Positions 16,396-34,904 are shown, counted from the stretch's first letter. The stretch: DNA of 55,054 bases from Betaproteobacteria bacterium (GCA_947458835.1 CANHBC010000003.1:1-55054), one strand, 5' to 3'. Notes: a model not told the origin generated them from the sequence alone. Program-made: numbers and translations.

Positions 16396-16636
16396 CTCCC
16401 GCGCAGTGGCGCGCACCATCGGGCTGGCTGGCGTGCCAGCCCGGCAGCACAACGATCGCCGCTCCGGCTTCGCGCTGGCCCAGCGAAACATCCGATATCG
16501 CGGGTTCGCCCTCCGATCGAAGCCCTCGGGCGCCTGGCCCCTGCTCGACCTGCGCGGGGCTCCGTTCGAGTGGGTGAACCGGCATGACCTAGACAGGACC
16601 CTCTTCGATCCTGCAACCCTGCGCCGGGCAGGCCCT

Positions 16637-17248
16637 TCAGACCCAGTCTCCGAGTTCCCTCATCGGAATGTTGTGCGTCGGGCAGATCGGCGGTCCCAGG
16701 TGCAGGAAGCGCCGGGGTACGGTCACCTTGTAGCCGCACGTTGCGCACTCGGCCTTCGGCGGTGGCACGGAGGCCGGGCGACGATGGTCGGCCTTCAGCT
16801 TTCCGTGCGGATAGGGAGGTAGCCTCGCGAGGAGGGACTCCAGGCGGGTCTTCAGCGCGGGGCCTGCGCTGGCGCTGCGCATGGGCCCCTGCAGTCCGAT
16901 GGCCAACGCGATCTTCCGGAATGCCTTGCCGTGCCTGTGCTCGCAGTCATCCACGGCGTGGACCAGTTCGTGGGTCAGCGTATCGATGACTTCGTACGCA
17001 GTCCCCAGAGACGGCGAAATGAAGATGTGGTTCGTGTCGTCCGTCGCACTCTTCCGCGACCAGCACTGCCCGATGGCGCTGCTGCGCAGCCCGGTGCTTG
17101 CGTAGCCCACCGATGCCTTGACATCCGGAACGCGGTATCCGTGCGGGGTGAAGACCTCCTGGGCGAGCAGGTCGCTCGCGAGCAGCAACCACCCCTCGCG
17201 TGTCGCTTGCAGCGCGATCGTCTTCTTCGGTTTTTCGCTCGTCTCCAT
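16637..17248 (-). CDS. SprT-like zinc metalloprotease with C-terminal Zn finger
   Basis: HELVH...HGKAF and CATCGY...CPTH. ATG 17248 chosen; an upstream start is possible. Confidence 0.8.
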   Translation of the reverse strand: METSEKPKKTIALQATREGWLLLASDLLAQEVFTPHGYRVPDVKASVGYASTGLRSSAIGQCWSRKSATDDTNHIFISPSLGTAYEVIDTLTHELVHAVDDCEHRHGKAFRKIALAIGLQGPMRSASAGPALKTRLESLLARLPPYPHGKLKADHRRPASVPPPKAECATCGYKVTVPRRFLHLGPPICPTHNIPMRELGDWV

Positions 17249-17366
17249 GTCGTCCAGGTTCCGGGTGCGTATGCCGGTGCGTTCGATGTCTGCCGCGATC
17301 GCGCCCTCGCAGCCGAAGGTCGATCGATCAGGTCGCATCGGCAAACCCCTCATCATCGCTATCGGC

Positions 17367-17385
17367 TGGCTCAGGGGATGAGGCA
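17367..17385 (-). promoter_or_regulatory. TGnCTCA-N5-TGAGnCA box, candidate WYL regulator site
   Basis: Minus strand TGCCTCATCCCCTGAGCCA, then 9 nt, then GATGAT. Confidence 0.65.
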
Positions 17386-17595
17386 GCGGGCAGCCTTCGT
17401 TACGCGCGCCCCCGGTGCTTTCTGCGCCACTGCTCGACCCACGCACACAACGCATCTGAGGCGCCCTTGACATCATCCATGCAGCGGATGTGTCCGGCGC
17501 AGACCTTCTGGAGCGGATCCGTCTGAGCGGTGGGCTGCTGAGTCGAGCACCGTGTGCACCCGGTCCCACTCGACGGTGACCCACCGGGCGACCCG

Positions 17596-19023
17596 TCAGG
17601 CGTGCGCGGAGCAGCACTCGCGGTGGTTCGATGCGCCACCGTCGAGCCCGGAGTCTCCCCCCGTGCACCCTTTGTGCCCGAGCGCCGTGTCCCTGCGCAG
17701 GAACCGTGGCATCGCCGCCTCCTGCAACGCGTCGTACCGCGCCTCGCGCCGGGACACCAGCCGCGATCGCATGCGCGTCGCGATGTAGAGCGACTCCTTG
17801 CCGAACCAGCCCTTGTCCTGCTGCCGGGCGATCCGGCCGAGCGAGGCCAGCACCGCTTGCGGCCAGGGCTGGTCGGCGAAGCGGTCGCGGGCGCCGTCGA
17901 TCAGCCCCTGCGCCTGGTCCCAGTCGCCGGCACAGGCGGCATCGCGCGCCTGCTCAAGCAGGCGGCTTGCCTCGACTTCCGCATGCCGGGCGTGCACCAG
18001 CGGGTCTGCGGTCAGCGCGCCCCACGCCTGCGGCGACACTCTGTCGATCGAGAGCGTGGCCTCGGGGAAGGGTATCGGAGCGTGGTCCAGGCTCGTGGCG
18101 GTCACGCTGGCCTGAATCAAGGGCACGCCGGGCAGCGGCACGAAGCCGGCCGGGATCGACAGCTCGACCAGCGCCCAGGCTTCGGCGCCCCAGGCGACGT
18201 CCGGCAGGCTGACCGCCGGCGCGCCCAGGCGCGGCTCCATCGGGTAGTCGTTGAGCACCCTCATGCCCACGCCGGTGCAGGTCGCGATCGACAGCCGTAC
18301 CTGGCGGGCGTAGAGGCTGGAGATCAGGTCGAACTCCTCGGCGAAAGGCTCGAACAGGTCGGCGGTGTTCTCCCCGTAGTACGGATTGCCGCCGCCGGCG
18401 CGCGCCATCGTGGTCAGCAGCGACTCGTCGAATTCGCGCCCCAGCCCGTAGGTGGAGGTGGTGACACCGCGCGCGGCCGCGGCGGTACAGTGCGCGGCGA
18501 TAGCAGGCGTCTTCCCGCGGTCGCCCGTGCTTGCGTTGCCGTCGGTGAGCAGGATGATCCGCGCGATCGATGCCGATGCTGCGTCGGGTAGCAGCGAATC
18601 GGCACCGGTGGCCCAGCCGCCGTGAAGGCTGGTGTTGCCGCCGCCCTGGGCGAAGGCCCTGACGTGGTGCTGCGCGCTCTGGTCGCCCACCGGCCGGGCC
18701 GGGGCGAGCAGCGATGCCCGGTGGTCGAAGGTCACCATGGAGACGACGTCGGTCGGCTGCAGGCGACGGAAGAGGTCATGCGTGCAGCGTAACGCCTCGC
18801 TCAGGCGCTGGCTGTTCATCGCCCCGGACTGGTCGATCACCAGCGACAGGTGGAATGGCCGCCGCACCTGCGGGCGAGCCAGGTTGGCATCCGGTGCCTG
18901 CACTCGCACCAGCACCGCCAGGGTGTGGGCCTGCCCGCCGATCAGGGTGGGCTTGAGCGGCGTGAGGCTGACCTGCGCGGTGACGGCACGGGCGAGGATG
19001 TCGGGGTGACTGCTGGGGGACAT
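17596..19023 (-). CDS. vWA-domain protein (YfbK/CLCA-like) with variant MIDAS
   Basis: LSLVIDQSGAM, GGNTSLHGG, ILLTDGNA, TYGLG. GAGGAGG RBS. Confidence 0.88.
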   Translation of the reverse strand: MSPSSHPDILARAVTAQVSLTPLKPTLIGGQAHTLAVLVRVQAPDANLARPQVRRPFHLSLVIDQSGAMNSQRLSEALRCTHDLFRRLQPTDVVSMVTFDHRASLLAPARPVGDQSAQHHVRAFAQGGGNTSLHGGWATGADSLLPDAASASIARIILLTDGNASTGDRGKTPAIAAHCTAAAARGVTTSTYGLGREFDESLLTTMARAGGGNPYYGENTADLFEPFAEEFDLISSLYARQVRLSIATCTGVGMRVLNDYPMEPRLGAPAVSLPDVAWGAEAWALVELSIPAGFVPLPGVPLIQASVTATSLDHAPIPFPEATLSIDRVSPQAWGALTADPLVHARHAEVEASRLLEQARDAACAGDWDQAQGLIDGARDRFADQPWPQAVLASLGRIARQQDKGWFGKESLYIATRMRSRLVSRREARYDALQEAAMPRFLRRDTALGHKGCTGGDSGLDGGASNHRECCSAHA

Positions 19024-19065
19024 CGGGCCTCCTCATGCGTTGCACAGTGGAGCATGGCGTTCGGG

Positions 19066-19084
19066 AGGCTCATGGGGTGAGACA
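19066..19084 (-). promoter_or_regulatory. TGnCTCA-N5-TGAGnCA-like box, candidate WYL regulator site
   Basis: Minus strand TGTCTCACCCCATGAGCCT, then 9 nt, then CATGCT. Confidence 0.65.
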
Positions 19085-19176
19085 CTAATGATGAATAATA
19101 TGAATTACCACAATTAGCGAAATGATAGCCGCTATGTGGATTCGCTGCTAGCCTGTTTCCGGGAGGAGGGCTCATC

Positions 19177-20160
19177 ATGGATCGCACCGAAAGATTCCGA
19201 ACGATCACCCGCCTGGTCGGCCGGCCACAGGGCGCGTCGCTGCGGCAGCTGATGGACGCGCTGGAGGTCTCCCGCGCGACCCTGAATCGCGATCTCGAGT
19301 ACCTGCGCGACCGATTCAATGCACCGATTGAATGGAGCCGCGACGATGGCATCTACCGCCTGCAGGCGTCCGGTCCGAAGGGTCGGCGTTTCGAACTGCC
19401 CGGCCTGTGGTTCGACGAGCGCGAGATGCTCGCACTGCTCACGATGCAGCGGCTGGTAGGCGAATTGCAGCCGGGCCTGTTCTCGACGCAGATCAAGCCG
19501 CTGGCCGACCGGCTGCAGGCGCTGATCGGCGATGCGGGCCATCCGGCCAGGGAGATCAGCCGGCGGGTAAAGGTGCTTCCGATGGGTGTGCGGCACGCGA
19601 CGCTGGAGCATTTCGAGCGCGTCGCCAGCGCGCTGCTCGAGCGGCGGCGGCTGGTGATCCGCTACCGCAGTCGTGGTCGCGGGCAGGATACCGAGCGGGA
19701 AGTGTCGCCGCAGCGGTTGGTGCACTACCGCGACAACTGGTATCTCGACGCCTGGTGCCACCTGCGCGGAGACCTGCGCAAATTTTCGGTCGATGCGATC
19801 CACGCCGCGACCGTGCAGCGGACCAGGGCCGACGACCTACCCGAGGCCACACTCGACGAAGTGCTGTGGTCTGGCTACGGCATCTTCTCCGGAAAGGCGA
19901 CCAAGCTGGCGAAGCTGCGCTTCAGTGCCGAGCGCGCGCGTTGGGTTGCCTGCGAGGTGTGGCATCCGCAGCAGAAGGGCGCGTACCTTCCCGACGGGCG
20001 CTACGAACTTGAACTGCCGTACGCCAGCGAAATGGAGCTGGTGATGGACGTGATGAAGTACGGCGCGGAGTGCGAAGTGCTGGACCCGGCGGAACTGAGA
20101 CGGACGGTGAAGGAGCGTCTGGCGGAGGCGGGGAAGGTCTACGGGCGGGGCACCGGGTAA
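19177..20160 (+). CDS. HTH-WYL-WCX transcriptional regulator (YafY/PafB-like)
   Basis: LEVSRATLNRDLEYL HTH, REVSPQRLVHYRDNWYLDAWC, WHPQQ, YGAECEVLDP. Confidence 0.93.
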   Translation: MDRTERFRTITRLVGRPQGASLRQLMDALEVSRATLNRDLEYLRDRFNAPIEWSRDDGIYRLQASGPKGRRFELPGLWFDEREMLALLTMQRLVGELQPGLFSTQIKPLADRLQALIGDAGHPAREISRRVKVLPMGVRHATLEHFERVASALLERRRLVIRYRSRGRGQDTEREVSPQRLVHYRDNWYLDAWCHLRGDLRKFSVDAIHAATVQRTRADDLPEATLDEVLWSGYGIFSGKATKLAKLRFSAERARWVACEVWHPQQKGAYLPDGRYELELPYASEMELVMDVMKYGAECEVLDPAELRRTVKERLAEAGKVYGRGTG

Positions 20161-20254
20161 ACGCCCCGTCGAGCGTGATTTCCGAGCGGTCACCGCGCGA
20201 ATGATCTCCGGCTGAACGGACAGGCGTGGTGCCCGGTGGCGTTCCGTACAGCGT

Positions 20255-21244
20255 TCAGTTGGCCTTGATGCCGGCTGCCTTCACCACGCGGCCCCACTTC
20301 TCCATGTCCGCAGCCATGTAGGCACCGAACTGGGCTGGGGTCATCCGCAGCACCGTCGCGCCGTCGTTGTCGAGCTGCTTCCGGATCTCGGGCAACTCCT
20401 GCACCGCGGAGACTTCCCGGTGCAGGCGCTCGATGATGGCCGCCGGGATGCCGGCGGGCGCGAGCAGCCCGAACCAGTTCACCGTTTCGTAGTCGGGGAC
20501 GCCCGCTTCCGCGATCGGGGGCACGTCCGGCAGGATCGGGTTGCGCTGCAGGGATGCCACCCCCAGCGCGCGCAGCCGGCCGGCGCGCACGTGCGGCACG
20601 GTGGCCAGCAGGCCCCCGAACGTGAGGTTCGCATGCCCGGCGACGACATCGACGGTCGCAGCGCCTGCACCTTTGTAGGGCACGTGCAGCATGTCCACCT
20701 TCGCGGTGTAGCTGAACAGCTCGGCCGCGAGGTGGCTGACGCTGCCCACGCCCGCCGAGGCGTACTGCAGCTTGCCCGGATTCTTCCTGGCAAGGGCGAG
20801 CAGGTCCGCCACCGACCGGGCGGGCACGCCGGGATGCACCACCAGCACGACCGGGCTGCCCGCCACGATGGCCACCGGCGCGAACGACCGGATCGGGTCG
20901 AAACGGCCCTTGAGGTCGTACAGCCACGGACTGACCACGTGGGCCAGCGACGCCACCAGCAGCGTGTAGCCATCGCGCGCGGCATTGGCGGCCAGTTCGG
21001 TGCCGATGATGCCGCCGGCACCGGCGCGGTTGTCGACCACCATCTGCATGCCGAGGCGTTCGCTCATCGCCATCGCGACGATGCGACCGGTGACATCGCT
21101 GCCGCCGCCCGGCGGAAACGGGATGATCAGCCGGATGGGCTTGGCCGGATAGGCTTGCGCCACGGCCGTGCCGGCGCCTGCGGTTGCAAGTGCGAGTGCA
21201 GCTGCTCCGAGCATCGCTGCATGCAGCAGTGCGCGTGCCTTCAT
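20255..21244 (-). CDS. Bug/TctC solute-binding protein
   Basis: YPAKPIRLIIPFPPGGGSD, HVPYKG. Confidence 0.92.
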   Translation of the reverse strand: MKARALLHAAMLGAAALALATAGAGTAVAQAYPAKPIRLIIPFPPGGGSDVTGRIVAMAMSERLGMQMVVDNRAGAGGIIGTELAANAARDGYTLLVASLAHVVSPWLYDLKGRFDPIRSFAPVAIVAGSPVVLVVHPGVPARSVADLLALARKNPGKLQYASAGVGSVSHLAAELFSYTAKVDMLHVPYKGAGAATVDVVAGHANLTFGGLLATVPHVRAGRLRALGVASLQRNPILPDVPPIAEAGVPDYETVNWFGLLAPAGIPAAIIERLHREVSAVQELPEIRKQLDNDGATVLRMTPAQFGAYMAADMEKWGRVVKAAGIKAN

Positions 21245-34325: not shown

Positions 34326-34904
34326 TCAGGCGGCAGCGCGCTTGCGACGCGAGATCACGCCGAGGCCGGCCATGCCTGACAGCATCAGCCACGCACCCGC
34401 CGGCAGCGGTACGACCGTCGCCCGCGTGTCGTAGAACGAGATGTGGGACAGGTCCCTGCCCTCGGGCGTGTTGAACGAGAACACCTGGCTGCCGCCGAAG
34501 TAGGTCGGGGTCAGTGAGTACACCAGGTATCCGTTGCCAGCCTTCGAGGCGAAGGCCGTGATGCCAGGGCCGGCCCCCTGCGGATCGTAGCGCCAGGTCC
34601 TGTTGACGGCGTCGATCGTGAACCAGGAAGCGAGGAGGCCCGGGAACACGCTCGTGTTGAGCTCGACGCCATTCGTAGCCAGCGAACCATCACTATTGAA
34701 GTCGAACTTGGCGATGATCGGCGACCCGTTGAGCTCACAACGCGAGAATCCGCCCTGGCAGTCGTTTCCAGGGAATACGTTGGTCGTCGACGAGAACGGG
34801 ACCAGGGTCGAGACCACGGCAGCTTGGGCGCGGTCAGCAATGCCACCCAGCGAAAGGGCCAGGGTGACGGCGGCGGCGAGTGAGGCCAGTTTGAACGATT
34901 TCAT
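34326..34904 (-). CDS. VPLPA-CTERM (PEP-CTERM variant) exosortase-target protein
   Basis: Signal peptide; C-terminal VVPLPAGAWLMLSGMAGLGVISRRKR. Confidence 0.9.
   Translation of the reverse strand: MKSFKLASLAAAVTLALSLGGIADRAQAAVVSTLVPFSSTTNVFPGNDCQGGFSRCELNGSPIIAKFDFNSDGSLATNGVELNTSVFPGLLASWFTIDAVNRTWRYDPQGAGPGITAFASKAGNGYLVYSLTPTYFGGSQVFSFNTPEGRDLSHISFYDTRATVVPLPAGAWLMLSGMAGLGVISRRKRAAA

Follow-up and report, generated by a model that had tools for sequence, protein, structure and literature searches.

A conserved operator at a fixed distance from the -10 hexamer, apparently served by a WYL regulator, precedes vWA and SprT-like protease genes in Burkholderiales

The window analyzed here is a stretch of 55,054 nucleotides from a Betaproteobacteria bacterium (CANHBC010000003.1), which is contig C3 of a draft genome of 3.76 Mb (3,761,512 bases, 68.9% GC, 257 contigs). 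Between positions 16,637 and 20,160, it carries a gene for a WYL-domain transcription factor, a divergent gene for a vWA protein and, downstream of the latter on the same strand, a gene for a SprT-like zinc metalloprotease. Comparison across related genomes strongly supports that the boxes upstream of the vWA and SprT-like genes are two copies of one conserved operator, each set at a fixed spacing to a -10 hexamer, and that this operator belongs to the neighboring WYL protein is well, if indirectly, supported. Taking all the evidence together, we consider it rather probable that a WYL homodimer activates transcription in the manner of DriD and DdaA: it would act on GCTCA-N5-TGAGC, respond to single-stranded DNA (ssDNA) and control a small SprT/vWA regulon.

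A pattern search for TGNCTCA-N5-TGAGNCA found TGGCTCAGGGGATGAGGCA at 17367-17385 (minus-strand reading TGCCTCATCCCCTGAGCCA) with no mismatches and AGGCTCATGGGGTGAGACA at 19066-19084 (minus-strand reading TGTCTCACCCCATGAGCCT) with one mismatch. The latter contains operator box 1 (core GCTCA-TGGGG-TGAGA, 19068-19082), common to the divergent vWA and WYL genes, and the former contains operator box 2 (core GCTCA-GGGGA-TGAGG, 17369-17383), upstream of the SprT-like gene. On the minus strand, box 1 is followed by the -10-like hexamer CATGCT of the vWA promoter (19051-19056), and box 2 by GATGAT of the SprT-like promoter (17352-17357), each beginning 11 nt after TGAGC and 9 nt after the 19-mer. The sequence and the pattern search thus confirmed the places of the boxes, and the succession of box, 9 nt and hexamer, given in a preliminary description of this DNA. 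The vWA gene shows the full chain: box 1 and the hexamer, then GAGGAGG at 19034-19028 as the ribosome-binding site, and finally the start codon ATG at 19023. A promoter scan of 16400-20400 returned no sigma-70 promoter with a -35 element (0 canonical promoters); by the fixed spacing, the box would span about -38 to -24, where a -35 element is normally found.

Box 1 had been placed at the vWA gene in the preliminary description. It does face that gene; on its other side, towards the WYL gene, an equally spaced hexamer follows, AATAAT at 19094-19099 on the plus strand, 11 nt after TGAGA, which is a candidate autoregulated promoter. Counting the window together with 12 homologue loci, 10 of the 13 have an nAnnnT hexamer facing the WYL gene at the set offset, so that box 1 probably serves a bidirectional promoter, through which the WYL regulator would induce its own gene. 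The separate promoters described for the vWA and SprT-like genes hold for this genome and not for its nearest relatives, G005 and G014, where a single box drives a vWA-SprT operon whose genes overlap at stop and start (GTGA, at about 1810-1825 of locus L008 and in the same place of L009). The 347-nt spacer between the vWA and SprT-like genes, with its second box, was found only in the window genome. Box 2 is identical at 22 of 24 nt to the vWA box of G005; when the spacer was compared with the rest of the genome no similarity was found, and its only match was that 24-nt stretch of the G005 vWA box.

To follow the operator beyond this genome, 80 loci with SprT-like orthologues were compared from Limnohabitans, Polynucleobacter, Rhodoferax, other Comamonadaceae, Oxalobacteraceae and Methylophilaceae, 76 of which were eligible. 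An exact core was located within 350 nt upstream of the SprT-like orthologue in 39 of the 76 loci (two of these lie within coding sequence and were discounted), against a background of 0.09 per kb, or 0.03 per upstream window. With a position weight matrix (PWM) built from 48 orthologous sites (extended consensus wrGGCTCA-N5-TGAGCCyw) and a score of at least 12, a box was found upstream of the SprT-like orthologue in 55 of the 76 Burkholderiales loci. Among the loci outside matrix building, 18 of 39 had a box, compared to 67 of 1707 control windows (3.9%) from the same loci. Many of the boxes with one mismatch have the promoter-proximal half-site intact. Counted downstream from TGAGC, the 55 proximal boxes have A at position 13 in 93% of cases, T at position 17 in 95% and C or T at position 12 in 89%, so that the conserved spacing consists of a fixed 11-nt gap and then a (C/T)AnnnT -10 hexamer; both promoters in the window fit nAnnnT. 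The shared operator with identical promoter geometry was therefore borne out well beyond the locus where it had been proposed, and absence of the motif near orthologues, which had been named as grounds for rejecting the proposal, was not what we found.

The core is rare in the genome itself. In line with the genome-wide scan that had been suggested as a check, CTCA-N5-TGAG occurs only 10 times in 3,761,512 bases, and two of these occurrences lie 1.7 kb apart, upstream of the vWA and SprT-like genes. The composite of core, 12 nt and nAnnnT was present at 6 of 20 site orientations, compared to about 0.5 expected, and three of those six belong to this locus. Two other composite matches, at C67:17303 and C89:7730, lie inside long open reading frames (ORFs) and were dropped as probable chance. 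In the stretch examined on contig C67 (L147, C67:15300-19688), the GC content falls from about 0.70 to 0.45-0.57 from about position 800 onward, so that this part may be a foreign island, and a weak box-like site lies within a 460-aa ORF. In the genome-wide PWM ranking, box 1 was third (19.3) and box 2 fourth (15.9), preceded by C87:17052 (25.0) and C229:3612 (21.9) and followed by a next score of 15.0. Each of the two highest boxes (C87:17052-17072, locus L101, and C229:3612-3632, locus L102) lies close to a contig end. On the plus strand, TATCTT stands at the set spacing from the C229 box, which is located between a DUF3293 ORF on the minus strand and a DUF3592-like ORF on the plus strand.

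Each of five related genomes contains the strict box 3-8 times, compared to 0-3 times for a reversed control. There it precedes genes for cas3, recC, an SNF2 helicase with DUF499 and DUF3293, a RelB antitoxin and DUF1376, as well as a VIT-vWA gene adjoining a SprT-like gene (the SNF2/DUF499/DUF3293, cas3, recC and VIT-vWA cases being loci L123 in G014:C16, L130 in G005:C25, and L125 and L010 in G001:C1 and G001:C23). A MerR gene is present at the VIT-vWA/SprT-like locus among these relatives, and DUF3293 recurs beside the box in two genomes, the window genome (G000) and G014. Because of the two further high-scoring boxes in the genome and the boxes before cas3, recC, SNF2/DUF499 and DUF3293 in relatives, the regulon read from these sites is wider than the locus. 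Thus, of the mini-regulon first proposed, the two promoters with a common operator stand, and its closure as a two-promoter unit does not.

The operator was tied to the WYL gene by location. Among 15 WYL homologue loci found by protein search of genomes, 12 have a box (score at least 11.5) upstream of the WYL gene, at a distance of about 60-150 nt in 11 loci and about 300 nt in one, which upholds the link between regulator and operator made in the preliminary description. Orthologous copies of box 1 were present in G003, G005, G006, G007 and G014, and WYL gene, box and vWA gene form a stable unit within the genus. No SprT-like gene was found downstream of this unit in G003, G006 and G007; other genes occupy the flank in G003 and G007, and in G006 the contig ends about 100 nt after the vWA gene. 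Of the 80 SprT-like loci, 35 have a WYL gene no more than 4 kb away; of the 35 loci with complete 4-kb flanks, 19 do. Across 41 related genomes, a WYL homologue (E <= 1e-40) was detected in 22 (a tally that includes G039, a genome marked as unpublished) and a SprT-like gene in six, all six of which have the WYL homologue. Some WYL homologues (G001:C12:14487-15461, G008:C437:916-1890, and others in G031:C29 and G003:C235) cross one in-frame stop, TGA or TAG, and may be broken copies or assembly errors.

The WYL protein is encoded at 19177-20160 on the plus strand and has 327 aa in the order winged helix-turn-helix (wHTH), WYL and WCX (Pfam HTH_11 3.7e-05, WYL 4.3e-24, WCX 1.8e-16), which is the order found in homodimeric activators of the DriD/DdaA type of about 330 aa. 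Its best relatives with solved structures are PafBC (6sj9, 2.2e-17) and PafC (5.6e-12). The operator consists of two 5-bp half-sites 5 bp apart, and PMC12392091 gives CGWCA-N5-TGWCG for DdaA and CGAC-N7-GTCG for DriD. DriD is a WYL activator of an SOS-independent damage response; according to PMC13004042, its promoters have no -35 element, and its sites cover the -35 position, their distance to the -10 being constant. The DriD oligonucleotides printed in that source, read by eye, show the box, 11 nt and CAATCT for the operon divergent from driD, the same spacing with CAAGGT for didA, and CAAGCC for bapE. The boxes described here likewise appear to lie over the -35 place, at a constant distance to the -10, in promoters that lack a -35. 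This equal spacing speaks most strongly for an activator that recruits RNA polymerase as DriD does, and the activator mode is likely. Both the operator shape and the spacing match DdaA and DriD; the preliminary description had pointed out that activating WYL proteins bind close to the -10 element. The arrangement typical of the repressors BrxR and CapW, an operator overlapping a complete sigma-70 promoter beside a defense system, was not found. We file the WYL protein as a new clade, DriD/DdaA-like in its presumed action and not a DriD orthologue.

The SprT-like gene (16637-17248, minus strand) encodes 203 aa from the ATG at 17248, with a PF10263 score of 24.4 bits; an alternative ATG at 17338 would give 233 aa (16637-17338, minus strand). 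Because the homologues have about 190-215 aa and the alignment begins only at about residue 37 of the long ORF, the start is probably the ATG at 17248, which therefore puts box 2 about 120 nt upstream of the start codon. The protease domain contains HELVH at 93-97, followed by a C-terminal CxxC...CP zinc ribbon (C168, C171, C189), and in an alignment of 22 SprT-like sequences, H93, E94, H97, H106, C168, C171 and C189 are invariant. The predicted structure (predicted local distance difference test score, pLDDT, 88.5) has the HExxH zinc site and a further ligand on a minigluzincin fold. The best Foldseek match of the model was human SPRTN (probability 0.96, E 5e-3). A VIA comparison matched the model to SPRTN 6mdx_A with Z 8.3 (root-mean-square deviation 3.0, 21% identity over 96 residues), abylysin with Z 7.9 and Wss1 5xbn_A with Z 6.8; for this tool, a Z of about 8 exceeds the stated level of usual noise only moderately. 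The likeness to SPRTN, first proposed from sequence, is therefore carried by the model, which is SPRTN/Wss1-like. The zinc ribbon matched the MCM zinc-finger region with Z 3.8 only, and a sequence search of the PDB with the SprT-like protein gave nothing meaningful. We found 683 homologues, most with precomputed PF10263; their clusters in the Atlas are named SprT-like and have PF10263 in 37-77% of members. No PADLOC or NCBIfam family matched the SprT-like or the vWA protein.

The SprT-like family is also common in phages. The protein matches phrog_6361 at 4.8e-37, and full-length homologues with 30-43% identity were present in 164 phage records, 161 of which cover at least 80% of the query (for example, PP978807.1 34899-35489 and NC_047876.1 31360-31956), from phages of Arthrobacter, Microbacterium, Streptomyces, Bordetella, Pseudomonas, Burkholderia and other hosts. 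In Arthrobacter phage Soondubu, the one region inspected, the SprT-like gene lies among genes for DNA polymerase, ligase, HNH endonuclease and methyltransferase. In one Bordetella phage record, the homologue is named 'antirestriction protein'. A related protease domain is present in ArdC, an antirestriction protein of plasmids.

The vWA gene (17596-19023, minus strand) encodes 475 aa (Pfam VWA 2.1e-11) comprising a beta-sandwich, a vWA domain, a helical domain and a disordered C-terminal tail. The model (pLDDT 83.9, predicted template modeling score 0.83) appears to have the beta-sandwich, vWA and helical architecture of the ArnB/Sec23-24 type, and Foldseek matched it to ArnB (8s05, 5e-21, TMq 0.62-0.64), 5a8j (1.6e-18), 4fx5 and Sec24 (about 1e-13). 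Residues 441-451 form a conserved C-terminal tail, F-L-R-(R/K)...G-(R/K)-G, followed by a disordered end unique to this genome. According to PMC12852372, ArnB holds the zinc ribbon of ArnA, its zinc-ribbon/FHA partner, via its beta-sandwich and helical domains, and this analogy suggests that the zinc ribbon of the protease may dock on the vWA protein as ArnA does on ArnB. A single complex prediction of the two proteins scored 0.00 and bears neither way.

An exact CTGT-N8-ACAG, which we take to be the LexA box of beta- and gammaproteobacteria, was found about 20 nt upstream of the WYL box, in the same place each time, in 9 of the 80 orthologue loci (L030, L032, L033, L035, L037, L038, L040, L065 and L099), about 98-100 nt before the anchor at SprT-like residue 46; the rest of the loci has 6 such sites in 696,790 nt. 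It was not found in the window. These sites suggest dual control of the protease gene by LexA and the WYL protein in Limnohabitans-like lineages, and apart from them nothing independent hints at damage induction. With DriD, DdaA and PafBC as models, an ssDNA or damage trigger is plausible.

Based on these results, we propose the following model. A homodimer of the 327-aa WYL protein would bind the 15-bp palindrome GCTCA-N5-TGAGC, 11 nt upstream of the -10 hexamer, and would recruit RNA polymerase to promoters without a -35 of their own. Its targets would be the vWA gene (box 1, leftward), the SprT-like gene (box 2) and, probably, the WYL gene itself (box 1, rightward), and its trigger would be ssDNA that the WYL domain binds when DNA is damaged or phages attack. 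Two products would be induced, a zinc protease that resembles SPRTN/Wss1 and ends in a zinc ribbon, and a vWA protein that resembles ArnB/Sec23. Both would work on proteins trapped on DNA, and the zinc ribbon may dock on the vWA protein. We infer each of these steps, from the binding of the box and the activation of the promoters to the ssDNA signal, the substrate of the protease and the contact between the two products. At its widest, the model would give Burkholderiales and many phages a dedicated, damage-induced counterpart of SPRTN/Wss1 for removing proteins trapped on DNA, controlled by an ssDNA-sensing WYL protein (in some lineages together with LexA) and held by a vWA adaptor that grips the zinc ribbon; this extension is conceivable and, in our judgment, improbable.

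Several observations weigh against the activator model and the SPRTN-like function. The boxes, the spacing, the WYL link and the folds were computed, and regulation itself is deduced from them. By sequence, the WYL protein is nearer to PafBC and PafC than to DriD, whose chains matched with E 0.11-0.17 only. At C87:17052, the best-scoring box of the genome, nAnnnT is missing from the set spacing on both sides. Only 15 of the 80 loci have a vWA gene no more than 4 kb from the SprT-like gene, and 9 of the 35 with full flanks do. The presence of a WYL homologue and of a box at the SprT-like gene did not always coincide: in two of five genomes with a strong SprT box no WYL homologue was found, and three of five genomes without a box at SprT do carry the WYL gene, where all are metagenome-assembled genomes (MAGs) of unknown completeness. 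The PF10263 score of the protease is below the gathering cut-off of 25.6. The MIDAS (metal ion-dependent adhesion site) of the vWA protein in the window has lost one serine, reading D64-Q-S66-G-A68 (DQSGA) where 13 of 13 aligned homologues have DRSGS, with T131 and D161 kept. Finally, the box in relatives precedes defense genes (cas3, SNF2/DUF499), which is the usual setting of WYL repressors.

This last point bears on the alternative that the WYL protein is a repressor of the BrxR/CapW type and that the vWA-protease pair is a defense or conflict module derepressed on phage attack. Besides the boxes before cas3, SNF2/DUF499/DUF3293 and the RelB antitoxin gene, and the abundance of the protease family in phages, the window protein has weak sequence matches to CapW and BrxR (3e-4 to 0.05), and PADLOC WYL models, listed as Cas-associated signaling, match it at 1e-36. 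A repressor operator, however, needs no fixed 11-nt distance to the -10, yet 55 promoters have one; there is no -35 element for a repressor to compete with, and the geometry equals that of the activator DriD. Control of Cas and restriction-modification (RM) genes is likewise exerted by the activator DdaA (PMC12392091), while the vWA and SprT-like proteins have no PADLOC match and their neighbors are housekeeping genes for transport and metabolism. We therefore regard repression as rather unlikely. Another factor than the neighboring WYL protein might bind a genuine box, since the assignment was made from sequence and not from binding, since no WYL homologue was found with this query in two of the five strong-box genomes, and since 37 of the 80 SprT loci have no WYL or vWA match within 4 kb. 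The box nevertheless stands upstream of 12 of 15 WYL homologue genes wherever they are located, its shape is that of the DdaA and DriD operators, and the two genomes without a match are MAGs of unknown completeness; such a factor seems very unlikely.

Chance is the least credible account of the likeness between the two boxes, and we hold it to be next to impossible. Within the window alone, the loose pattern is not enriched (three matches at up to two mismatches, the third at 34373 with two, against 1.77 expected; 27 of 100 shuffles reach three, which is not significant), but the core is rare genome-wide, conserved across genera and set at a constant spacing to the -10, and by these comparative data chance resemblance is already refuted. 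For the protease, a different role may be considered, in which the regulation is as in the model above but the enzyme acts as a signaling protease of the IrrE/CapP/ImmA type, cleaving a repressor or the WYL protein rather than DNA-protein crosslinks. Its zinc metalloprotease domain is joined to a zinc ribbon that may bind DNA, IrrE (3dti) and CapP (7t5t) appear at Foldseek ranks 25 and 37 with E of about 0.8-1.0, and IrrE and CapP are ssDNA-activated according to the titles of cited papers. Its best matches, however, are SPRTN and Wss1, at the values given above, and not M78 peptidases; no CapH/DdrO-like small HTH substrate gene lies beside the protease gene, and the phage homologues are found in DNA replication and modification modules. 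This role appears distinctly unlikely to us, and a crosslink-directed protease under a WYL activator remains the reading that we prefer.

The locus is flanked by genes for a branched-chain amino-acid ABC transporter, TctC receptors and aconitase. The GC content at third codon positions of the WYL, vWA and SprT-like genes is 0.83-0.90, like that of the neighbors, so that nothing marks the locus as part of an obvious island. Two lexA genes score above the TIGR00498 cut-off in this genome, at C91:15228-15815 and C208:2937-3563.

We found no literature description of a WYL-SprT-vWA system or of this operator, which agrees with the earlier view that the system is undescribed. The words 'SprT' and 'vWA' are absent from the main texts of the DriD and DdaA papers that were searched, and the supplementary regulon tables of those papers could hold such genes. 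ssDNA-sensing WYL activators (PafBC, DriD and DdaA) are a recently recognized second route to the bacterial DNA-damage response, and the locus would define a further WYL clade in freshwater Burkholderiales, with its own operator and the promoter geometry of DriD, which argues that other WYL proteins share the activation mechanism solved for DriD. The targets conserved most at this locus, a SPRTN-like protease and a vWA protein, have no known bacterial role. A 2026 review states that there is no clear evidence for proteolytic repair of DNA-protein crosslinks in bacteria (PMC13705206). With a SprT-like protease that is putatively damage-regulated, has a simple predicted promoter and occurs in 164 phages, this question becomes directly testable, and, if the model is true in its widest form, it would be the first such pathway described in bacteria.

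Among the closest known systems is DriD of Caulobacter crescentus. As described in PMC13004042, DriD is also a wHTH-WYL-WCX protein of 327 aa with a pseudo-palindromic 15-bp core and a divergent bidirectional promoter at its own gene, and it shares the box over the -35 at a constant -10 distance and, in the oligonucleotides read by eye, the spacing of box, 11 nt and CAnnnT. It differs in its half-sites (CGAC.. versus GCTCA here), in its marginal sequence similarity and in reportedly not activating its own gene. A vWA/SprT pair in the operon divergent from driD was ruled out, as this operon encodes an unknown protein and a TonB-dependent transporter (PMC12340889). DdaA of Acinetobacter and Moraxellaceae has the same 5-N5-5 operator with an xxxCA-N5-TGxxx core, and is an activator whose regulon mixes DNA-repair genes with Cas and RM defense genes (PMC12392091 and PMC13010146); a similar mix is seen here in the boxes before recC and cas3 in relatives. 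The outer half-site bases and the lineage differ, and DdaA is described as having replaced SOS, whereas this genome has two lexA genes. PafBC of actinobacteria, the best solved-structure relative, is an ssDNA-triggered WYL activator of promoters without a -35; unlike the single gene and palindromic box found here, it forms a heterodimer or a fusion and binds its asymmetric motif only with the help of RNA polymerase. The defense repressors BrxR and CapW belong to the same domain family, but their sequence matches are weak and the promoter geometry here fits an activator.

Among the products, the vWA protein shares with the ArnB and Sec23-24 core the tripartite architecture and the structural match already given, whereas ArnB is archaeal, controls motility, is driven by phosphorylation and has 16-17% identity, and no FHA protein or kinase is encoded beside the vWA gene in the window. 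The phage SprT-like proteins of phrog_6361 differ in having no WYL or vWA context in the one region inspected. With SPRTN and Wss1, the modeled protease has in common the HExxH motif, a zinc-binding module after the protease domain and the top structural matches; it differs from them in lacking PCNA, ubiquitin and p97 motifs, in a zinc ribbon that forms a separate C-terminal module, and in its Pfam score under the cut-off.

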